Positions 27 through 61,933 of a stretch of 64,000 nt of DNA are shown here, in pieces. Every line of letters starts with the position of its first letter. Position 1 is the stretch's first letter. The DNA comes from a virus, in UHGV virus genome UHGV-1351770, one strand, 5' to 3'. The translations under genes were made by a program, and so were the position numbers. Below the pieces are notes generated by a model. That model saw nothing but the letters and a program-made list of their open reading frames with translations, did no database searches and had not been told where the DNA came from.

Positions 27-109
27 TGGCGGGCCGTGTAGGATTCGAACCTACGTTGTCTTTCGACATGGATTAACAGTCCACCGCCAAACCGCTTGGC
101 TAACGACCC
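27..109 (-). tRNA. tRNA with anticodon GUU (Asn-type) and an unusually long 13-nt variable region; CCA encoded
   Basis: Read on the minus strand. Acceptor 31-37 pairs with 103-109 (two G-U wobbles). T arm gtagg/attcgaa/cctac at 38-54. Anticodon arm 68-84, loop rc ctgttaa. D arm gcca/tggc at 86-100. tgg at 27-29 is the encoded CCA. Confidence 0.7.
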
Positions 110-261
110 TAAATTTACATTGCTGACTAGGATTTTCACCTAGACGGAGTTAGCACCGTAGCGTGTAGCGGCATACCTCTCCAAACCGTGCCTCATCTTT
201 CAATTACGGAGACAGTGTTCCTACGCGTGCCTGAATTGATTTAACAATTCTTTCAGCAAAT

Positions 262-337
262 TGGACGACCGCATGAGATTTGAACTCACATAAAAAGGAT
301 TTGCAATCCTTCGCCTAAGCCATTCAGCCAACGGTCG
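262..337 (-). tRNA. tRNA-Cys (GCA), 76 nt with encoded CCA
   Basis: Acceptor cgaccgc pairs with acggtcg. T loop atttgaa. Anticodon stem aagga/tcctt with loop rc ttgcaaa (U33, GCA, A37). Confidence 0.75.
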
Positions 338-359
338 ATTTATCTTGTTCTGTCATGTT

Positions 360-403
360 GCTTCTCCAGTTCAATTTATGTAATTATTATACAGAACTTT
401 TGG
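360..403 (-). promoter_or_regulatory. Conserved early promoter/leader driving a 10-codon micro-ORF and tRNA-Cys
   Basis: rc: TATAATAATTACATAAATTGAACTGGAGAAGCAACATG. Confidence 0.6.
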
Positions 404-695
404 AAACTAAGCAACTACATTTTTTAAGAATTTGATGCCTTTCTTTTTTCTTCTTATATTTCCACGTTAATGGATTCTGTCGATTATAAACGCTTGAGAT
501 CTTTGTCTCGTCAAAGTTCTTCAATATCATGTAATCACAGGATAATTGTTCTAGTGGAATGTGATCCCCGTCAAAAGCGTATACATAAGGCTGTTGACTA
601 ACACGATAATGATAGACTTTGTTAATTCTACGTTTCAGCGACTTATCCGCGCAGTAAATAAAGAAGTTTTCAGGATGCATCAGCATCTCCTTCAA
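387..695 (-). CDS. Hypothetical small protein (102 aa), immediately downstream of a tRNA
   Basis: ORF in the dominant minus orientation. Lys-rich C terminus. No recognisable motif. Confidence 0.4.
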   Translation of the reverse strand: MKEMLMHPENFFIYCADKSLKRRINKVYHYRVSQQPYVYAFDGDHIPLEQLSCDYMILKNFDETKISSVYNRQNPLTWKYKKKKERHQILKKCSCLVSKSSV

Positions 696-697
696 TT

Positions 698-772
698 TGG
701 TGCACCCTGTTCGTATCGAACGAACCTCTCAAGCTCTTCAGGCAAGCGCTAATCCATCTCAGCTAAAGGTGC
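698..772 (-). tRNA. tRNA, 75 nt, with perfect acceptor and T arm; anticodon uncertain (best fold gives CUG, Gln-type, with C at position 33)
   Basis: CCA (tgg at 698-700). Acceptor gcaccct pairs with aaggtgc. T arm gttcg/tatcgaa/cgaac. The anticodon arm folds only as a 4-bp stem with loop rc gcctgaa. Confidence 0.55.
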
Positions 773-779
773 AAATTTT

Positions 780-850
780 TGGCAGGGGTAAAGGTATTCG
801 AAACCTTTTCATGGGTTTTGGAGGCCCATTTGCAACCTATGCGTACCCCA
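780..850 (-). ncRNA. tRNA-like element: canonical CCA-acceptor-T arm but a shortened body and a 9-nt loop displaying CCUCC
   Basis: tgg at 780-782. Acceptor aggggta. Perfect T arm aaggt/attcgaa/acctt at 791-807. Hairpin atggg-ttttggagg-cccat at 811-829. Only about 14 nt remain for the D region. The acceptor 3' side tacccca has one mismatch. Confidence 0.35.
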
Positions 851-859
851 ATTATTAAT

Positions 860-934
860 TGGCACACCCAACGAGGATCGAACTCGTGTTCCCACTGTGA
901 AAGAGTGGTGTCCTAACCGCTAGACGATAGGTGC
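860..934 (-). tRNA. tRNA-Glu (UUC)
   Basis: CCA encoded. Acceptor acaccca pairs with taggtgc (two wobbles). T arm acgag/gatcgaa/ctcgt. Anticodon stem ccact/agtgg with loop rc ctttcac. Confidence 0.75.
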
Positions 935-942
935 ATTAAATT

Positions 943-1030
943 TGGTGGGCGTTAATGGAGTCGAACCACTCGAGTCGCAATGACCAGGGATTTACAATCC
1001 CCTCCGCTACCACTTACGGAATAAACGCCC
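943..1030 (-). tRNA. tRNA-Tyr (GUA), class II with long variable arm, 88 nt with CCA
   Basis: Acceptor gggcgtt pairs with aacgccc (perfect). T loop agtcgaa. 14-nt variable region. Anticodon loop rc ttgtaaa. 3-bp D stem typical of class II tRNAs. Confidence 0.75.
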
Positions 1031-1111
1031 ATATTTAGAAGTATTCAAATACTAGTTTAAACACTTTTAAATATGTTTCCAAATTAGATAACTATTATAT
1101 CAAGTTTTAAG

Positions 1112-1150
1112 GCACTGAGCAAGTCAGATTTTGAAGAACTTGCTCAGTGC
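1112..1150 (-). terminator. Perfect 13-bp hairpin (gcactgagcaagt / acttgctcagtgc) downstream of ORF 1159-1434
   Basis: Inverted repeat read directly. Weak U tract. Confidence 0.45.
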
Positions 1151-1158
1151 TGTATTAG

Positions 1159-1434
1159 TTAGTCGAATTTAGGAGTGACAGTTAAGGAGAACGGAAGTTC
1201 GAAAACCTCTTCACCCTCATTACTAACGGTAACTACACGACCTTTAAGTTCAGACATTGAAATATCAATATCAGCTTTTGCATCTGGAGCCATGCCAGCT
1301 TCAATACACTTAGCTTTAACTTCCGGTAAAAGCTCTACATTATAGAGATAAAGCCACTCAATCTCACCTTCCCAGTCTTCCCAGGATTTACAGATTGCAC
1401 TTTCAATACCAGTTGCTACAACACGATTTTGCAT
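1159..1434 (-). CDS. Hypothetical acidic protein (91 aa)
   Basis: ORF preceded by a conserved early promoter/leader at 1444-1482 and followed by a 13-bp perfect hairpin. Confidence 0.55.
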   Translation of the reverse strand: MQNRVVATGIESAICKSWEDWEGEIEWLYLYNVELLPEVKAKCIEAGMAPDAKADIDISMSELKGRVVTVSNEGEEVFELPFSLTVTPKFD

Positions 1435-1524
1435 TAGTTAATTCCTTCATCAATTTATATAACTATTATATCAGAAATTTAAAGTAAAAGGCAAGTACAT
1501 TTTTAAAAATTCTGTTTGGAGGAG

Positions 1525-1731
1525 CTAAACTCCAGATTCTTCGGCCAAGTCTAAACTAATAAGAGTTATAGCCATAATTGCCGCACCATGTTCTTTTTCT
1601 CCGGTGTTTTTAGCAGAGTCTATAATATCCTTAATCTGTTCGTAATAACTTTTTACTTCTTGTTCAATGCCTGCCTCGGCTATCATGCCTTTAGCCATGA
1701 ATCGTTGCATGGTAATTTCAGGATTAGCCAT
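1525..1731 (-). CDS. Hypothetical protein (68 aa)
   Basis: SD GGAGAAA 6 nt before the ATG. Translationally coupled to an upstream small ORF. Confidence 0.55.
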   Translation of the reverse strand: MANPEITMQRFMAKGMIAEAGIEQEVKSYYEQIKDIIDSAKNTGEKEHGAAIMAITLISLDLAEESGV

Positions 1732-1891
1732 GTTGTTTCTCCAGTTTCATTTTTAATAGTTTACAGATGAAATCAACGTCTTCATCTGTGCCTAAGTCTC
1801 TATCCTCAAGGGTCGCCTTGAAGTTTTTCGTCAATTCCATGAGGATGACTTCCCTAGAACGACGTGTTGGAGGCGGAGGAGGTCTATACAT
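1724..1891 (-). CDS. Small ORF not in the ORF track (55 aa, MYRPPPPPTRR...), stop overlaps the next ATG (ATGGCTAA)
   Basis: ATG at 1891 with AAGGAA SD. Proline run at the N terminus. Falls below the 60-aa cutoff of the ORF track. Confidence 0.4.
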   Translation of the reverse strand: MYRPPPPPTRRSREVILMELTKNFKATLEDRDLGTDEDVDFICKLLKMKLEKQHG

Positions 1892-1906
1892 CTTAATTCC
1901 TTAATT

Positions 1907-1983
1907 TGGTAGGGGTGGTGGGATTCGAACCCACAAAACCTGAATTTTAAGTCCAGTACCTATGCCAATTCGATTACACCCCC
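1907..1983 (-). tRNA. tRNA with anticodon UAA (Leu-type reading UUA) but class I size, 77 nt with CCA
   Basis: Acceptor aggggtg pairs with caccccc. T arm gtggg/attcgaa/cccac. 5-nt variable region. Anticodon stem ctgaa/tccag (one G-U) with loop rc cttaaaa. Confidence 0.6.
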
Positions 1984-2084
1984 ATGTAATCAGTTTATTA
2001 GTTGATACATATTATAGCCTAGAGAAAACCCTACTACTAATCCTACGAACCAACCAATATAATAATCTTTTAGTTTCACAGGTA

Positions 2085-2270
2085 TTATCCTCGTTCAATA
2101 TCTAGGGAAATACCGCAGTTAGGATTAATACCTGTACCCTTGCAATTTGGGCAAACCCAGATATTGCAAAAAGTATCTCCTGCTTCTGCATCAGAACTTT
2201 CACCAATTCCCCTACACTCAGGGCAGGCACATTCTTCTAGCTCTTGCTTGAGTTCTTGAAACTTAGACAT
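2085..2270 (-). CDS. Small Cys-rich zinc-ribbon-like protein (61 aa; CPEC...CPNC)
   Basis: Two CxxC pairs plus additional Cys residues. Same orientation as the neighbouring genes. Confidence 0.5.
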   Translation of the reverse strand: MSKFQELKQELEECACPECRGIGESSDAEAGDTFCNIWVCPNCKGTGINPNCGISLDIERG

Positions 2271-2279
2271 ATAGTCTCC

Positions 2280-2468
2280 TTAGTCAATTACTTTTGAGGC
2301 TTCAAGGTAGTCAATATAGTGTACGTTTTCTACCGTAATCATATAATCCGCCACTTTATCCATAGCTTGAGCTTCAGAGGTAGCTCTGACTAATCTATAT
2401 CCTTTTTTATATTCATCCGGGTATTCTCTATCTTGAATAAACACAACATAAACTATATATAGATCCAT
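2280..2468 (-). CDS. Hypothetical protein (62 aa)
   Basis: ORF lying between tRNAs in the gene-dense early region. Confidence 0.4.
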   Translation of the reverse strand: MDLYIVYVVFIQDREYPDEYKKGYRLVRATSEAQAMDKVADYMITVENVHYIDYLEASKVID

Positions 2469-2486
2469 TTGTGACCTCTATTTAAT

Positions 2487-2564
2487 TGGTGGCTCCCCGA
2501 GGATTCGAACCTACGTACCTTCCGGTTATGAGCCGGGTGCTCATACCATATGAGCTTGAGAACC
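2487..2564 (-). tRNA. tRNA-like gene with CAU anticodon (Met/Ile2-type) and a non-canonical D region (7-bp hairpin) and T stem
   Basis: CCA encoded. Acceptor ggctccc pairs with gagaacc (two wobbles). T loop attcgaa, but the T stem has a bulge. Anticodon stem ccgg/ccgg with loop rc ctcataa. D region gctcata-cca-tatgagc. Confidence 0.5.
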
Positions 2565-2570
2565 AAAATC

Positions 2571-2659
2571 TGGCGGAAGAAGTGGGAATCGAACCCACAA
2601 GGCTATATTTCAAACCGACAGATTAGCAATCTGCTGCAATACCATTATGCTATTCTTCC
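2571..2659 (-). tRNA. tRNA-Ser (GCU), class II, 89 nt with CCA
   Basis: Acceptor ggaagaa pairs with ttcttcc (perfect). T arm gtggg/aatcgaa/cccac. Anticodon loop rc ttgctaa. 19-nt variable region. 3-bp D stem. Confidence 0.75.
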
Positions 2660-2680
2660 GAATTTATAAGATATATTATA

Positions 2681-3199
2681 TTAGAAATTTAACTTCATAG
2701 CAAGAAAATTTTTCAAGTTTTCGGTAGACATCTCATCCACATCTACAGGAGAAACAAATCCATTTAATTGTCTAGCAAACTTTTCACCAGCAGGATCATT
2801 GTCCCCAACAGCTACCACTTTAAAAGGTAGTAATTTCAGTTGCTTTAATAACGCTTTTCCTGGAGAAGAGCCCAACATTGCCAGGGCTGGATAACCAGCA
2901 TTATGTAACGCAACTGCCTTAAATACAGATTCAGCGATCAATACTACTTTTTCATCTCCATTGAGAGTTTCTAGTCCCCATACACACTGGGTAGTAGAAT
3001 AAGTAAAGTATTTAGCTTCAAAGGGGCACTTACCATGACCTTTTGGAGCAGAAGGATTATAAGTTTGATAGCCCCTCAACATCCCAGAGAAGTCATACAA
3101 CGGGACTGTTAGCCATCCCTCCGGACTTAACCAGCAATGATATTTATCTGTATCAAACCCTCTAGATAAGAGGTGCTGTGTTAGCTCATCAACATTCAT
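2681..3199 (-). CDS. TOPRIM-fold protein (172 aa); true start MNVDEL at 3199, since the ORF-track N-terminus reads through the promoter
   Basis: Conserved Glu (LIAESVF) and DxD (VVAVGDNDPAGE) motifs. Promoter/leader TATAATATATCTATAAATTTGAGAGAGG lies directly upstream of the ATG at 3199. Confidence 0.55.
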   Translation of the reverse strand: MNVDELTQHLLSRGFDTDKYHCWLSPEGWLTVPLYDFSGMLRGYQTYNPSAPKGHGKCPFEAKYFTYSTTQCVWGLETLNGDEKVVLIAESVFKAVALHNAGYPALAMLGSSPGKALLKQLKLLPFKVVAVGDNDPAGEKFARQLNGFVSPVDVDEMSTENLKNFLAMKLNF

Positions 3200-3204
3200 A
3201 TCTG

Positions 3205-3259
3205 ATTCCTCTCTCAAATTTATAGATATATTATACAGAGAATTTAGCATTCAAGCAAT
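3205..3259 (-). promoter_or_regulatory. Conserved early promoter/leader (minus strand) for the TOPRIM gene
   Basis: rc: TTGCTT-17-TATAATATATCTATAAATTTGAGAGAGG, then ATG. Confidence 0.7.
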
Positions 3260-3373
3260 CAAATTTTTTAACTTTTAGAGGAAAATCATATGGCACTTAA
3301 GGGTAGCAGATAAGTGGTGAGGACCAAAATTTGTGACCCCACTAAAAATCCGGGGGCAATTTTTAAAGACCCC

Positions 3374-3402
3374 TTGACATTTTCGCGGGGGTAGTGTAAA
3401 GT
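3374..3402 (+). promoter_or_regulatory. Sigma70 promoter TTGACA-17-TAAAGT driving the plus-strand cassette
   Basis: Exact -35 hexamer with a 17-bp spacer. AGGAGG SD follows. Confidence 0.65.
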
Positions 3403-3464
3403 ATATGTTATGGATGAGTGATCAAAGAGACACACATTTTCTATATACTAGGAGGTGTCAAAAA

Positions 3465-4451
3465 ATGACAGAAGAAGTAGCTAAGAGTCCTGAGACCGTC
3501 GCTAGCGTTGCAGCAGAACTGCACCGTCACGAGGAATCAGATAAGAAAAAGTGGGAGAAGGTCAGAGCCTACGAAGAAAAACATCGTGAACACGATGATG
3601 AAGAAGATGACGATGATGAGCATTGTCATAAATATGGAAAACATAAAATGCAAGAACCAGTAAACGTATTCACTAGTGGCTTCCCTGGCCTACTGGGTGG
3701 TTACCCAGCAAACGCAGGTGCTTTCGGTGGGGAAGGTATGGGTCTATTCGGAGCTATCCTAATCGGTGCTCTATTAACAGGCGGATTCGGTGGTTTCGGT
3801 GGATTCGGTGGACGTGGTGTAGTTGGTGAAGGTACCGCAGTTGATGCAGTACTTCAGAACCAAGATACCGCTAGTATTCTAGCAGCTATTAATACTACTC
3901 GTACAGAAGCTAACCAGGGTACTGGAGCTGTTTTAAGCGCAGTTAACAATGGTTTTAGCCAGACATCCCAAAACCAGAGCCGTGATACTCAGTCTGTACT
4001 AACTACGATCTATGGTACAGGTGCTAATCTGTCTAATCAGATCTGCCAGGAAACTCGCAACGTTATTCAGGGTCAGTTCGATCTTTCTCGCCAGATTGAT
4101 CAATCTTTCGCAGCTAACCAGATAGCTCGTGCACAAGATAAGTTTGATTCTGCACAGATCGCTTTCCAGCAGACTTTACAAACTAATAACCAGTTTGCCG
4201 CTGTTCAGGCTCAGATGTGTGCTAACCAGAACTCTCTGGAACGTCAGATTGCTGAATGTTGCTGTGAACTTCAGACTGCGATCGCTGGTGTAACTACTGC
4301 GCGTATCCAGGATGAGTTAGATGCATGTCGCCTACGTGAAGCAATCGCTGCAGGTAGCGGTGCTAACGGTCAGGTAATTAATCAAATCGCTTTAAGTCTT
4401 GGTGCTATCACTCAGACTCTGGCTGGTCTGCAGGCTAAACTGCCTGCTTAA
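3465..4451 (+). CDS. Low-complexity protein (328 aa): acidic/His-rich N terminus, Gly-zipper hydrophobic segment (GLFGAILIGALLTGGFGGFGGFGG), Gln/Asn/Thr-rich C-terminal domain with CCCEL
   Basis: AGGAGG SD 8 nt before the ATG at 3465. Own sigma70 promoter at 3374-3402. Opposite strand to its neighbours. E. coli-optimal codons (ctg, gct, ggt). Confidence 0.65.
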   Translation: MTEEVAKSPETVASVAAELHRHEESDKKKWEKVRAYEEKHREHDDEEDDDDEHCHKYGKHKMQEPVNVFTSGFPGLLGGYPANAGAFGGEGMGLFGAILIGALLTGGFGGFGGFGGRGVVGEGTAVDAVLQNQDTASILAAINTTRTEANQGTGAVLSAVNNGFSQTSQNQSRDTQSVLTTIYGTGANLSNQICQETRNVIQGQFDLSRQIDQSFAANQIARAQDKFDSAQIAFQQTLQTNNQFAAVQAQMCANQNSLERQIAECCCELQTAIAGVTTARIQDELDACRLREAIAAGSGANGQVINQIALSLGAITQTLAGLQAKLPA

Positions 4452-4472
4452 TATTAAGGGGAGGAGCCCATT

Positions 4473-4889
4473 ATGAGTAAATATGGTTTTGTAAATAACG
4501 GACTTAATCAAAGTATGGGCTCCCAGCAGCCCATTCCGGGTCTGGATAACCCCTACTTACAACAATTGCAACAGCGTTTAGCAGAAGCGCAACAGATGCA
4601 GCAACAACTCCAGCAAAACCCTGGAAGTGTGAGTCCTATGCAAATGATGCAGCAAATGGGCGGGCAGTCGCAAATGCCTCAACAAATGCAGCAACAGGTG
4701 CCGCAGCAGCAAGTTCAGCAACAAACCCAACAACCGCAGGTTTCTGCGGAAGGACAGGCAGTACTAGCCCTTTTCGAAGACTTCGCAAAGACAGAGGATG
4801 GGAAACAGCTTGTATCACTTATGGGTAAGTTTAATAGCTTCTGCCAAAGCCAGGTTGCAAAAGCTCAAAATGGTGGTAATAACTCCTAA
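4473..4889 (+). CDS. Gln-rich low-complexity protein (138 aa)
   Basis: GGGGAGG SD. About 35% Gln (QQLQQRLAEAQQMQQQLQQ...). Second gene of the cassette. Confidence 0.6.
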   Translation: MSKYGFVNNGLNQSMGSQQPIPGLDNPYLQQLQQRLAEAQQMQQQLQQNPGSVSPMQMMQQMGGQSQMPQQMQQQVPQQQVQQQTQQPQVSAEGQAVLALFEDFAKTEDGKQLVSLMGKFNSFCQSQVAKAQNGGNNS

Positions 4890-4898
4890 GGAGGAATT

Positions 4899-5093
4899 AT
4901 GTGTTGCAGAAAATCTGTTTCGTGCTGCCCAATGCCTGTAGCACGTTGTTGCTCTCCAGCAATGTTTACGCAAATACCGGCGTTCAATCCGTTTGCCTTT
5001 AAGCCTACTCTTATCCTGCCCCCTAGAGTAGATTTTCAGTCAAGATTGGCCTCCCGTATGGGTGGTTGCTGTAATAAGAGTATATGGTTCTAA
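4899..5093 (+). CDS. Cys-pair-rich peptide (64 aa; CC...CC...CC...CC)
   Basis: AGGAGG SD. Four CC doublets. Followed by a rho-independent terminator at 5108-5146. Confidence 0.5.
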   Translation: MCCRKSVSCCPMPVARCCSPAMFTQIPAFNPFAFKPTLILPPRVDFQSRLASRMGGCCNKSIWF

Positions 5094-5107
5094 AGAACCA
5101 AACAATA

Positions 5108-5146
5108 AAGCCCCTAGTCGAAAGACTTAGGGGCTTTTCTTTTATC
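5108..5146 (+). terminator. Rho-independent terminator of the plus-strand cassette
   Basis: gcccctagtc...gacttaggggc followed by ttttcttttat. Confidence 0.7.
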
Positions 5147-5149
5147 TTA

Positions 5150-5190
5150 AATACAGAAAAGCCCTGCGCTCTCCAGGGAACGCAGGGCTT
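5150..5190 (-). terminator. Rho-independent terminator for the SPFH gene (minus strand)
   Basis: agccctgcg/cgcagggct 9-bp stem; T-run on the minus strand. Confidence 0.65.
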
Positions 5191-5335
5191 ACTTCAGATG
5201 TTACGTGCGGATATTATTTATTACGCATATCCATAATCATTTGGCCATCATAGCCAGTACCTACCACAGTCTGTGGTACACCACCTTGATATTTCTGAGC
5301 ACGAATCATTTCAACTTCCAATTGCTTCCAACGAA

Positions 5336-6172
5336 TCATTTCAGGAGTAATAGTACGTTGCAGTGCGGCGTTAGCTTCAGCTTCTTTCTTAGCTGCGTAC
5401 AGTTTAGCGTCTGCGTCACGTTCATTAGCAATAGCTTGGTTGTTGCGAGCTTCACGGTCTGCTTCTGCCTGTTTAACTTTTGCTGTGCTTCTTGTTCAAC
5501 ACGAGCAAGTTCAGCTTTCGCAGCATTAACTTGCTCTTCACGAACTTTGGTATTCTGTACCTGTTCCATGATTACTGGAGGCAGGGTAATATCCTGAAGA
5601 AACACCTGCTTAACTGTGTAACCATATGGGCGTGCATACTCTTCAACTTCCTGTTGAATTGCAGTTTGCAATTGAGCCTGAATTTTAGCATCAAACAAAT
5701 CTTGTGCTTTTGGTACAGACTTACCAAACTCACGAATAGTAGACAGTAATTTTTCAGTTACATACTTGTCTAGTGCCTGATCCTGAGTACCTGCGTTAAT
5801 ACGGTTAATCGGTGCCTTAGAACCATCAAACTGCAACATAACAGTCAGGTCAACAGTGGATTTAAACTTATCCTGGCTAGGAACCTGAAGTTTATCTAAT
5901 TTTACAGCAATATCTTTTGTACTAAAAGTATCGAAAGATGCAAACGGGTTTACAAGATGGAAACCAGGCAATACTGGATTAGGATCTACTTTACCCAGGA
6001 ATGTTTGGGTTTTAACCGTACCATCAGAAACAATAGTATATGAATTAAAAGCTAGAATCAAGCCTGCTAAACCAACTACAGCACCAACTACAGCACCAAT
6101 ACCCCAACGTTTAATAGTACGAATTACTTTCTGCTCAGAAGTCAGTTCTTTCATATTTTTAGTATTAAACAT
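5336..6172 (-). pseudogene. SPFH/band-7 (HflK/prohibitin-like) membrane protein, frameshifted near 5478-5481; reading continues in the -1 frame to a TAA at 5214
   Basis: N-terminal TM helix plus SPFH domain. After ...ARVEQEAQQK the current frame turns into non-homologous text. The alternative frame encodes VKQAEADREARNNQAIANERDADAKLYAAKKEAEANAALQ..., which is HflK-like coiled coil. Confidence 0.6.
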
Positions 6173-6205
6173 ATGTTTCCTTTGTTTTAGTTACAGTTAA
6201 TAAAA

Positions 6206-6280
6206 TTGGCCGAGGTGACAGGATTCGAACCTGCATAAAGAAATTTAGAAGACTCCTGCCTCTCCCTTAGACTACACCCC
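6206..6280 (-). tRNA. tRNA-Arg (UCU), 75 nt with CCA
   Basis: Sense strand: CGGGGTG acceptor, D stem gtct/aggc, anticodon stem ggagt/atttc with loop cttctaa (U33, UCU, A37), T arm gcagg/ttcgaat/cctgt, acceptor cacctcg, G discriminator, CCA. Confidence 0.65.
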
Positions 6281-6776
6281 GTTTAGGCATTTTTAAGAAC
6301 TCTTATAAAAGCTCTTAAAGATACCCGACGGTAGGTAGGGTTAGCCCCCTCAGATTAAGCTCTGCAGCCCTTCCGTCAGACAATATCTTCCAGTTTAAGT
6401 CAGGGTGACTTAGTGGTTATGTCCTGCGGTATATTGAGGACTCGGTTAGGCTTGGGGTCATGACTTCCCACCTTTTGCTGCTACTCAACAGGAGTTATCG
6501 CGAATTACCTGTGCTATTGTGCACCATTAGTGACATCTCTCATGTCAGCATTTCCCACTTTGTGGATAGCTTGAAAAACTACTCCGATATGGAGAAAGAA
6601 CTTCACTACCCTAGAATACCTTCTAAAGTTCTTCTTTAGCCTGGACATAGTTAAATCGTAATAAAACTATTCAGCAGACTGGTTGGTTAGTCTGGAACCA
6701 ACTACCGCGTGGTTTAGGCAGTGCGCAACTAACCTCGGAAGCTTTTACGTTAAAAGCATCAGTTATCCAGTTCTTA

Positions 6777-60300: not shown

Positions 60301-61015
60301 CTTGTAGTGACCTAGCAAGGGTCTGAACAGGAGTACCTGTCTGAGTACCTACTATAACACCAAATTTTTCTAGACGATTTAGCTGATCACCTAGTTTAAG
60401 TTGTTCAAATGCTGATTGCAAAACGAAGATGTTGGAAGCAAGAGCTGCGTACATAATAGGTAAACTACCACCGATCTTAGCCATTGCCGCAAAATCACGA
60501 GTTGCACCACGTGCTGAACCAGAAGTATTACCAATAGCTCTAGAAGCTCTACCAGCGGCACCAGCAGTATCATTAAAACCCCTAGCTGTGCCACCTAATG
60601 CTCTATTAGTATCGTATAATCTATCCTGGACTTTTTCTGTTGCAGCTGCAACATCATTACCCATTGTTTTAACAGATCTAGAAACTCCATCGAATCCAAT
60701 TTCTAGTTTATCTGTTACTTCAATAAGCTGGATAGCCAGGTAGTCTAGCTTATCACCAATACCATCAATGGATTTAGTGATACCAGCCATACCCCTACTA
60801 GCTTGCATTTTAGTAAGACTTTTCGCTGCTCTGTCTGCTGCCCTCTCAATGGAATAAAGAGTTCTGGGCATTTTACCTAACTGCTCATTTGTCAGTTCGG
60901 AAGCAGCAGCAGCATTTTCCAACGCATCAGATACGTTTTCAATAGACTTTGCAGTACGAGTTGCCCCCTTCTGTTTAACGTCTATTAGTAATTCTCGTAT
61001 TAGCTTATCAGTCAT
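57335..61015 (-). CDS. Tape measure protein (T5 pb2-like, 1226 aa)
   Basis: Long alpha-helical/coiled-coil protein with a hydrophobic C-terminal region. Size close to T5 pb2 (1219 aa). Confidence 0.85.
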   Translation of the reverse strand: MTDKLIRELLIDVKQKGATRTAKSIENVSDALENAAAASELTNEQLGKMPRTLYSIERAADRAAKSLTKMQASRGMAGITKSIDGIGDKLDYLAIQLIEVTDKLEIGFDGVSRSVKTMGNDVAAATEKVQDRLYDTNRALGGTARGFNDTAGAAGRASRAIGNTSGSARGATRDFAAMAKIGGSLPIMYAALASNIFVLQSAFEQLKLGDQLNRLEKFGVIVGTQTGTPVQTLARSLQEAAGYAISFEEAMRQASSASAYGFDAEQLNKFGLVARRAAAVLGVDMTDALNRVIKGVSKQEIELLDELGVTIRLNDAYADYVKQLNAANTGITYNVNSLTTFQKQQAYANAVIAESTKRFGYLDEVLRATPWEQFAANADAALRKIQQAAAKYLGPVIDAINTVFYTSQASISAEAARAQEKTNRQIDPTNVGAVALSLAASEEGYNKALDMYKESLDKRNKLKSEFDKRMEQADFYTKLAIRQVGEGIPVGLAAAGASEANKQFVAETAAMGLQVTRLGKEVEDSTENLNAWKSAYQAAGAAAAKASPEFQKQINLQRDTTDPDAVYDFNSTVLKGLTEQQKAYNQTKKTASDLANDIQNVAQNTDTAAKTSATLADAIKNIESLSLGTGKSADEYVKNLNLGYNTLSEMKTASQALSEYVKLTGNETKNQLAVQQKIADVYNQTKDKEKAQEAGRRLELQQLEEQEAALRRVLQTNQGNKAVEKEIEKIQLEKLKLTNQGMEAQKKVKDYTDKILGVDREIALLNDRTMTTTQYRLAQLKLELTIEKEKYEWYTKQADKQKEAEQSRRAQAQISREIWEAEKQATASHVSALMDALEVSQTQRNVTGQSQILTERLSILQQQLELSKGNTEEEIKYRNEIYKTSAALEQLRKQRDSQMQQQVGSSVGAVYTPTTGLSGEDKDFADMGNRMASYDQAISKLSELNSEATAVAQSMGNLTNAMIQFSQGSLDTTSMIASGMQTVASMIQYSTSQQVSAIDQAIAAEQKRDGKSEASKAKLKKLEAEKLKIQQDAAKKQIIIQTAVAVMQAATAVPYPFSIPLMVAAGLAGALALAQASSASSMSSIADSGADTTSYLTLGERQKNIDVSMSANAGELSYIRGDQGIGSANSFVPRAEGGNMYPGVSYQMGEHGTEVVTPMVPMKATPNDELKTSSNSTSGRPIILNISAMDAASFREFASSNSSALRDAVELALNENGASLKTLGNS

Positions 61016-61027
61016 GTTTTATTTTTC

Positions 61028-61063
61028 CCAATAAAAAAGGCTCTGGGCAAATCACCCAGAGCC
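61028..61063 (-). terminator. Strong hairpin plus U-tract between the T-like chaperone ORF and the tape measure gene
   Basis: ggctctggg-caaatca-cccagagcc, then tttttt on the minus strand. Confidence 0.65.
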
Positions 61064-61098
61064 AAGCCTCATCGTGGAACGCCCATTGGAGGAAACTT

Positions 61099-61467
61099 TT
61101 ACCGTGCACGAGATCTAGCATGTGGCTTAACGTTAGGAATCCTCCCGTTTTGCGGTTTATGCTTCTCAGCACGTTTACGTGCAGCGTCTACAGCTTTAGC
61201 ATCAAATATATTGATAATGTGTAGAACAAATTCTTTTTCTATAGGATCAGTAATCCCATAAATATCAAATAAAACACCTAATGCAGCTTTATCCTTACCT
61301 ATAAAAATAGGAAAGTCACCCGGTATGAAACAGTCAATCAGACTGTTATAAATATTCATACTAATAGATACAATAGGTGGAAAATCCTCAAGTTCAACGG
61401 GCATAGCCTTAGGATCAGGCTCTATACCCATTGACTCGCAAAGTATTAAATATTGTTGTTTGGTCAT
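61099..61467 (-). CDS. Tail assembly chaperone T-like segment (122 aa from its own ATG; frame open further upstream, overlapping the G-like ORF in the +1 frame)
   Basis: No SD before the ATG at 61467. The frame is open from 61553. Confidence 0.5.
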   Translation of the reverse strand: MTKQQYLILCESMGIEPDPKAMPVELEDFPPIVSISMNIYNSLIDCFIPGDFPIFIGKDKAALGVLFDIYGITDPIEKEFVLHIINIFDAKAVDAARKRAEKHKPQNGRIPNVKPHARSRAR

Positions 61468-61528
61468 TTTAGATGCTGAGCTCTTAATACATTTATCTGC
61501 AAAATCAGCAACAGCATCTAGGAGTTCT

Positions 61529-61933
61529 TTACGCTTTTGGGCTACGAAAAGTGTCTAAGTGGAACACTGTCTGGTTGATCCAAGAATCAAACGCAGCAGA
61601 GTTCTGCATGAGCATTACAGCATTATCGCGGCTAAAAGGAACTTCAGTAGCAGGATCAGCATCTGTTTCAATCAGCATCAGTTTTTCAACGTCACCTACA
61701 GTCAAACCGGTCCAACCTTTAATAGCTGCGTCAACAAAGGCTTCAATGAACTTATCATCATCCTGTACCTGAATCAAAGTACCATTAACCCATTCATCGC
61801 GTTTAGCAGAAGAAATAACACGTTTAGAGGTAGCACGAGACATATAGTTAAGTTCTAGTTTAAAGTTCGGCATACCCGGGTAGGAAAGAGTAATAGTACG
61901 AGTATCGAGAGTAATATCTTTTAAATTAATCAT
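61529..61933 (-). CDS. Tail assembly chaperone (gpG-like, 134 aa)
   Basis: Position between tube and TMP genes. Acidic. GGAGAAA SD. Confidence 0.6.
   Translation of the reverse strand: MINLKDITLDTRTITLSYPGMPNFKLELNYMSRATSKRVISSAKRDEWVNGTLIQVQDDDKFIEAFVDAAIKGWTGLTVGDVEKLMLIETDADPATEVPFSRDNAVMLMQNSAAFDSWINQTVFHLDTFRSPKA

Follow-up and report, generated by a model that had tools for sequence, protein, structure and literature searches.

The window analysed here, a stretch of 64,000 nucleotides (nt) from virus genome UHGV-1351770, carries two overlapping tail-assembly-chaperone open reading frames (ORFs), G and T, and the tape-measure gene, all on the minus strand. The gene order along that strand is major tail protein, p140-like baseplate tube protein (a match to PF23779 with E = 4e-140), G, T and tape measure. 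An original prediction, made from the letters of this DNA, had described a G/T-like chaperone pair with T in the +1 frame instead of the canonical -1 frame, and the pair is confirmed by chaperone-family matches and by its location between the tail-tube and tape-measure genes. The chaperone region of 1.1 kb shows 98-99% identity to many T5-like (Tequintavirus) phages, and the same G/T layout is also found in 446 phage records. Because both ORFs match chaperone families and the layout recurs in these records, the arrangement is not due to chance. We identify the locus as the tail-assembly-chaperone module (G/GT) of a T5-like (Tequintavirus-type) phage, and the tape-measure protein is the presumed client of G and GT. 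Below we argue that the GT fusion is probably made by +1 slippage of the P-site tRNA-Phe from UUU to UUC (61549..61546), near the 3' end of G.

The family matches already point to a fused product. G, which is the product of standard decoding, matches positions 12-139 of the 258-position profile phrog_313 'tail assembly chaperone' (E = 1e-33), while T matches phrog_3914 (E = 1e-56) and positions 170-258 of phrog_313 (E = 3e-17). Hence the two ORFs match two halves of a single profile, indicating that the profile contains fused G-T sequences. In the T5 reference NC_005859 the equivalents of G and T are annotated separately, as T5.143 and T5.142, and no joined G-T coding-sequence annotation was seen in the public records inspected. 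Pfam, NCBIfam and PDB sequence searches with the window G and T returned nothing usable; PF08890 (XkdN-like chaperone) matched faintly in 4 of 11 relatives (best E = 0.018), and a single-sequence AlphaFold2 model of G, built without an alignment, had a mean predicted local distance difference test score of 34.5, too low for the model to be used. A HMMER search with the extended T ORF gave 147 matches, nearly all of them ORFs of 90-150 amino acids (aa), and did not find a natural single-ORF G-T fusion. Against an index of 5.8 billion proteins, the extended T ORF matched only close relatives and the predicted 277-aa GT had no significant match, apparently owing to a limitation of the word index. 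One database protein of 1455 aa (P0009) contains eight separate T-domain-like stretches, a repeat architecture.

Table 1. Features of the G/T region and the adjoining tape-measure gene, in window coordinates
Feature	Coordinates	Strand	Basis
G-like tail assembly chaperone ORF, 134 aa, stop TAA 61531..61529	61529..61933	-	ORF list
ACT (61552..61550, would-be E-site codon) and upstream +1-frame stop TAG (61557..61555)	61550..61557	-	sequence
Proposed +1 cassette UUU_CGU: TTT 61549..61547 (Phe129 of G), CGT 61546..61544	61544..61549	-	conservation
Slippery tetranucleotide U_UUC (proposed)	61549..61546	-	within UUU_CGU cassette
26-codon linker, read in the +1 frame alone, VAQKRKELLDAVADFADKCIKSSASK	61468..61545	-	GTA 61545 to the codon before ATG 61467
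C_CCA_AAA, -1 heptamer in correct register	61535..61541	-	leads to -1 frame SVKNS, then stop
Predicted hairpin, 9-bp stem UAGAUGCUG (61520..61512) / CAGCAUCUA (61478..61470)	61470..61520	-	folding
T-like ORF, 122 aa, ATG 61467, stop TAA 61101..61099	61099..61467	-	ORF list, PHROG
Conserved 30-nt non-coding block TTTCCTCCAATGGGCGTTCCACGATGAGGC, directly upstream of the terminator	61066..61095	-	cross-genus comparison
Rho-independent terminator-like hairpin GGCTCTGGGTGATTTGCCCAGAGCC, then TTTTTTATT (T-run)	61029..61063	-	pattern scan
Tape measure protein, pb2-like, 1226 aa	57335..61015	-	ORF list and annotation of homologous records

Reading of the T frame upstream of its ATG

T lies in the +1 frame relative to G, since (61933-61467) mod 3 = 1, and comparison with relatives bears out this frame relation and the predicted departure from the -1 arrangement. 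The 3' end of G reads ...GAC ACT TTT CGT AGC CCA AAA GCG TAA. In the +1 frame, the first sense codon after the TAG is ACA at 61554..61552, so that the opening originally placed at 61553 is off by one base, while the accompanying claim of an overlap with the last 7 codons of G holds (ACT TTT CGT AGC CCA AAA GCG; 23 nt). The predicted +1 reading across the junction, ...AQKRKELLDAVADFADKCIKSSASK-MTKQQY, matches ours exactly, and the G stop was likewise correctly located.

The region between the two annotated genes behaves as coding sequence. The 61-nt 'intergenic spacer' that separates the G stop from the ATG is included in the 26-codon linker, and among 25 distinct T5-like sequences it has 21 variable columns, which fall 5/1/15 on +1 codon positions 1/2/3. 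In these sequences the ratio of synonymous to non-synonymous codon variants is 18:4 in the +1 frame, compared with 1:24 and 1:22 in the other two frames. The spacer thus evolves as +1-frame coding sequence, indicating that it is translated in that frame upstream of the ATG. No ATG, GTG or TTG occurs in the +1-frame linker stretch of the window. The ATG itself lacks a good Shine-Dalgarno sequence, as had been predicted; the sole purine run, AAGAG, ends 13 nt upstream.

Comparison across divergent lineages further shows that the apparent T start codon is missing from several of them. Of 12 lineages, 7 have ATG at the position aligned with ATG 61467. In the remaining 5, Eos and the Klebsiella Sugarlandviruses carry ATA there, Vibrio Chester has TTC, valsw3 CTA and L118 TTA. 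For Eos, the whole open +1 stretch ahead of T is devoid of start codons. The Klebsiella Sugarlandvirus sequences (L056, L150, L151) have a strong AAGGAGG, located 10 nt upstream of the ATA that takes the place of the T ATG.

All public records inspected annotate G and T as separate proteins; T would then start at ATG 61467, through de novo initiation or through re-initiation by ribosomes that had stopped at the end of G, 61 nt upstream. This reading accommodates the lineages that retain the ATG and agrees with the Sugarland genome paper, which describes T5 and Sugarland as having no predicted frameshift signal. Yet it would leave untranslated 61 nt that are constrained as +1 codons, it offers no usable Shine-Dalgarno sequence, and it places the start only 4 nt beyond the end of a 9-bp hairpin. 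Furthermore, it does not accommodate the five lineages without the ATG, above all Eos with no alternative start, or the -1-shifting homologues described below, which read the equivalent linker as part of GT. We consider it very unlikely that recoding plays no part here; judged on these sequence comparisons, T cannot be explained as a free-standing gene.

The hairpin at 61470..61520 is separated from the T ATG by AAA plus its closing A and has a folding z-score of -2.35. An alignment fold of the same element shows one compensatory change from a U-A to a C-G pair and one wobble change. The hairpin might mask the ATG and suppress internal initiation.

The TTT_CGN site

Within the short overlap of the two frames, one element recurs in every +1 lineage. 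An in-frame TTT_CG[T/A/C] occupies the homologous Phe-Arg position in 12 of 12 divergent +1 lineages, although these lineages are related to one another and the counts are not fully independent. The site lies 5 codons before the G stop in the window. The G 3' end reads ACT TTT CGT in the window and T5, ACT TTT CGT AAG TAA in Eos, ACT TTT CGT GAC in Klebsiella (Sugarlandvirus), TCC TTT CGT in L087, TCC TTT CGT TAA in Pectobacterium My1, AAC TTT CGT in Proteus Stubb and L118, AAC TTT CGA in Vibrio Chester and valsw3, AAC TTT CGT TAA in Vibrio 70E37-4, CGA TTT CGA in L092 and AAT TTT CGT in L096. The opening of the +1 frame precedes the TTC codon by only 6 nt in most lineages. My1 and 70E37-4 are the most restrictive: the +1 frame is closed by a stop 6 nt ahead of TTC, and G terminates directly after CGT, which confines the shift to 11 nt (xxC_TTT_CGT).

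Metagenomic relatives from marine sources extend this pattern. In 66 of 66 unique sequences, with G identities of 65-100%, a +1-frame T goes together with TTT as the Phe codon. In the 63 that were tallied, Phe is TTT in all 63 while the preceding Asn is AAC in 52 and AAT in 11, Arg is CGT in 58 and CGC in 5, and the codon after Arg is GTA, GTG, GTT, GTC or GCA; the other 3 have TTT_CGT as well. Across the relatives as a whole the Arg codon at the site is CGT, CGA or CGC and never AGR, with CGT in the window. In the marine clade of L096, L118 and their relatives (L152-L231), G continues for 19-26 open codons beyond TTT_CGT, and G and GT would therefore end in long, different C-terminal tails encoded by overlapping frames.

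The invariance of TTT runs against the phage's own codon habits, since TTT makes up 54% of Phe codons in window phage genes overall and only 36% when the next base is C. Over all long window ORFs, TTT accounts for 33% of Phe codons before a pyrimidine versus 68% before a purine (Fisher p = 5e-19). This deficit fits a genome-wide avoidance of shift-prone UUU_Y.

We propose that most ribosomes would make the 134-aa G and terminate at its TAA, while a minority would shift +1 as follows. With tRNA-Phe (anticodon GAA) in the P site on UUU 61549..61547 and the A-site CGU still empty, the anticodon would re-pair with the overlapping UUC at 61548..61546, replacing a G:U wobble with a G:C pair. GUA or GAA would then be decoded, GUA (Val) in the window, followed by translation through the 26 linker codons and the T domain to the TAA at 61101..61099. 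The predicted product is a 277-aa GT consisting of G residues 1-129 and 148 further residues, VAQKRKELLDAV..., and the tryptic junction peptide predicted for a UUU_C shift is DNAVMLMQNSAAFDSWINQTVFHLDTFVAQK. The open +1 stretch after the shift does span 148 codons, with both homology and coding constraint. We infer P-site slippage on the ribosome as the event, and the efficiency of the shift is probably low, as would be expected given that no stimulatory element was found and that lambda, where the G:GT ratio is roughly 30:1 (PMC5009743), needs only about 1 GT per 30 G. By analogy with lambda gpG/gpGT, the tape-measure protein would be bound through the shared G part, and tail-tube protein would be brought in by the T part.

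The overlap offers other places where the reading frame might change. The original prediction allowed a +1 or -2 event and suggested AAA_G (61537..61534), which lies inside the overlap, is conserved within the T5-like group and would permit tRNA-Lys to re-pair from AAA to AAG. However, AAA_G does not occur in any non-T5 lineage, despite their collinear +1 frames: the Klebsiella phages carry AAA_C or AAA_T, L087 has AAA_A, and the motif is also missing from Eos, My1, Stubb, Chester, valsw3, 70E37-4, L092, L096 and L118, whereas TTT_CGN is common to every +1 lineage. A CCA/TCA polymorphism immediately upstream of AAA also bears on the question, as it exchanges Pro and Ser in frame 0 but is synonymous (GCC/GCT) in the +1 frame, which fits a ribosome already reading +1 at that point. 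As for a -2 shift, AAC_TTT_CGT offers no acceptable re-pairing. The +1 direction of the prediction is thus supported and the -2 direction is not; a shift elsewhere in the 23-nt overlap, AAA_G included, appears highly improbable.

The window also contains C_CCA_AAA, a canonical -1 heptamer in the correct register, and one could suppose that the functional event is a -1 slip here that alters G or extends it by 5 residues, with T unrelated. As the original prediction recognised, the motif is a dead end, because the -1 frame closes after 5 codons (SVKNS). It is also not conserved: the site reads CTCAAAA in about half of the T5-like sequences, and it is absent from all other lineages. T5, with which a comparison had been suggested, shares ACT TTT CGT with the window and has CTCAAAA in place of the heptamer. 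We give this possibility almost no weight. No canonical X_XXY_YYZ heptamer leading into the T frame is present in the window, in contrast to sister lineages, which do have one.

These sister lineages comprise about 45 metagenomic relatives (33-39% identity in G) in which the T domain lies in the -1 frame. Their heptamers, G_GGA_AAC or A_AAT_TTT, are located one codon upstream of the homologous Phe, so that G ends in ...CTG GGA AAC TTY TCN... or ...GCA AAT TTT ACG.... When GT proteins are predicted with a +1 slip at UUU_C for one group and with -1 slips for the other, their alignment is free of gaps at the junction, and the junctions fall within one residue of each other; by this alignment the +1 and -1 sites are positionally homologous. 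In the -1 group the Phe codon varies (TTT 29 : TTC 7), and it is followed by Ser or Thr but never by Arg. This suggests that TTT_CGN is tied to the +1 arrangement and not to the protein fold.

Several observations weigh against slippage at UUU_C as the source of the T domain. The ATG at the T 'start' is kept in a majority of the divergent lineages, the window included, so some free T may also be made, and in Klebsiella phages a GTG directly after TTC is used as the T start by gene callers. The conservation of Phe-Arg could be due in part to protein reasons. No stimulatory element was found, with neither an upstream Shine-Dalgarno-like sequence nor a usefully placed structure. T5 is reportedly without a frameshift signal, a statement for which Zivanovic et al. 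2014 is cited. Finally, CGU is the commonest Arg codon of the phage (46%) and is common and well decoded in E. coli (table in PMC3498833), so that the 'hungry A-site' logic for +1 shifts does not apply.

Other candidate elements were considered and rejected. The hairpin at 61470..61520 is the only stable structure downstream, and its start, 26 nt beyond the UUU codon, is too distant for a stimulatory role. A small CUUUU/AAAAG hairpin spanning the shift site is invariant in T5-likes and hence uninformative, and its partner strand is absent in other lineages. Transcriptional slippage was rejected because the T-run is only 3-4 nt long.

The phage carries its own tRNA-Phe(GAA) gene at 698..772 on the minus strand, with G37 and two U.U mismatches in the anticodon stem (ARAGORN structure); seven further tRNA genes lie at 27..6281. 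G37 differs from the A37 (ms2i6A37) of bacterial tRNA-Phe, and this same tRNA would be the one to slip at UUU_C.

The region between T and the tape-measure gene

The original prediction also placed a strong terminator hairpin between T and the tape-measure gene, and this element proved to be real: a conserved terminator-like structure at 61063..61029, after the T stop and ahead of the tape-measure ATG (61015), with hairpin arms GGCUCUGGGU/GCCCAGAGCC and a U-run. On the suggestion made in that prediction, it might serve to set the stoichiometry between the chaperones and the tape-measure protein. The 86-nt T/tape-measure intergenic region folds at -31.6 kcal/mol (z = -3.85). The stem changes on both arms between genera, a pattern of covariation, reading GGCTCTGGG in T5-likes, GGCCTAGGG in Eos and Klebsiella, GCTCTAGGCG in Proteus and GCTCTGGG in Vibrio Chester. 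The homologous site of T5 is annotated as a putative terminator. In T5 (L141, NC_005859, 95777..96529), the inserted endonuclease gene T5.141 separates the terminator from the tape-measure gene. The window phage has no such insertion, which leaves just 83 nt between T and the tape-measure gene (61016..61098).

The conserved 30-nt block beside the terminator, TTTCCTCCAAYGGGCGTTCCACG(A)TGAGGC, contains an anti-Shine-Dalgarno-like CCUCC. Phages of E. coli, Klebsiella, Proteus and Vibrio (Eos, Chester; L055, L056, L059, L058) share this block almost unchanged, although the flanking proteins are only 30-40% identical. An Rfam scan of 60950..61650 gave chance-level matches only, with none to the block.

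Known recoding systems and significance

A frameshift in the tail-assembly-chaperone genes is conserved among long-tailed phages (Levin 1993; Xu, Hendrix & Duda 2004), as summarised in PMC5009743. The T5-type locus resembles lambda gpG/gpGT in its location directly upstream of the tape-measure gene, in a second ORF that overlaps the 3' end of a short first ORF in another frame, and in a fusion expected to be the minor product; in addition, sister lineages of the T5-like family use a lambda-like G_GGA_AAC. Unlike in lambda, the direction is +1 and not -1, the site is a U_UUC tetranucleotide with CGN instead of an X_XXY_YYZ heptamer, the T-frame linker runs 61 nt beyond the G stop, and there is no match to a lambda-type family in Pfam.

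The closest counterpart of the proposed site comes from a very different virus. In influenza A, PA-X is produced at UCC_UUU_CGU by slippage on UUU_C, which was shown by protein sequencing, and the same authors predicted a wider UUU_CGN class among other RNA viruses of eukaryotes (Firth et al. 2012, PMC3498833). The core UUU_CGU is identical in the window, the same P-site tRNA-Phe slip is proposed, and in both cases the outcome would be a low-efficiency alternative C-terminus. The PA-X E-site codon modulates frameshifting and is not essential (PMC3498833); the full UCC_UUU_CGU occurs in My1 and L087 only, while the window has ACU as its E-site codon and relatives have AAC, AAU, UCC or CGA. The systems also differ in that the T5-type site would operate on bacterial ribosomes in a double-stranded DNA phage, and in that CGU is rare in vertebrates and common in E. 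coli. The resemblance between the T5-type site and PA-X is convergent, not homologous.

In bacteria, UUU_Ynn sites were reportedly recognised as +1-prone by Schwartz and Curran in 1997. Such sites are described as especially +1-prone by Atkins et al. (2016, PMC5009743). Cases such as E. coli argI and the proposed UUU_UGG of Yersinia YopN-TyeA share with the T5-type site the tetranucleotide, the enterobacterial ribosome and independence of an adjacent stop codon. However, these cases are errors or of doubtful function, and the YopN-TyeA hybrid is not abolished by mutation of UUU_UGG, whereas the T5-type site is maintained throughout a virus family and opens the way to a domain that looks essential. 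The prfB type of +1 shift, which combines a shifty stop with an upstream Shine-Dalgarno sequence, does not correspond to what is found here, since the window stop lies 5 codons downstream of TTT and no lineage has a GGAGG-like sequence upstream. Neither does the -2 shift of the Mu type: in the sequences as read by eye, AAC_TTT_CGT and ACT_TTT_CGT, the -2 codons (ACT or CTT, and TTC) mismatch the anticodons of tRNA-Phe and tRNA-Arg.

Recoding of phage tail genes in directions other than -1 has precedents in Mu gpGT (-2), in the tail proteins of Listeria PSA and SPP1 (+1) and in haloarchaeal HSTV-2 (probable +1), and about 350 'forward' chaperone frameshifts have been annotated in actinobacteriophages. 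All of these use other slippery sequences, namely shifty stops, CCC_U or identical-base runs. Hence +1 or -2 recoding in phage tail genes is already known, and what would be new is the proposed T5-like case with UUU_CGN. Full-text searches of the literature turned up neither a +1 frameshift in the chaperone genes of T5-like phages nor a UUU_CGN site described for a phage; the only explicit statement on the subject was that of the Sugarland genome paper. A forward slip at UUU_CGU would explain why T5 was said to lack the usual frameshift signal.

A bolder extension of the proposal is that UUU_CGN is a self-sufficient +1 cassette on bacterial and eukaryotic ribosomes alike, adopted family-wide by T5-like phages instead of a -1 heptamer, and that the phage's atypical tRNA-Phe(GAA) may tune the shift. 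We regard this as unlikely; if true, such tuning would be a case of a virus-encoded tRNA programming a frameshift.

T5 is an intensively studied model of tail assembly whose chaperones are annotated as two proteins, and a defined site together with a predicted 277-aa GT makes the question of their fusion testable. If slippage at UUU_CGN is correct, the annotation of roughly 900 Demerecviridae genomes would be corrected, and the family would show, in a bacterial system, a natural and conserved use of the +1 motif UUU_CGN that is known from influenza PA-X. A further question is how +1 shifting would reach a useful level without a rare A-site codon. With -1 and +1 shifts located within one codon of each other in homologous genes, these phages would offer a clean system in which to study the evolutionary exchange of recoding signals.

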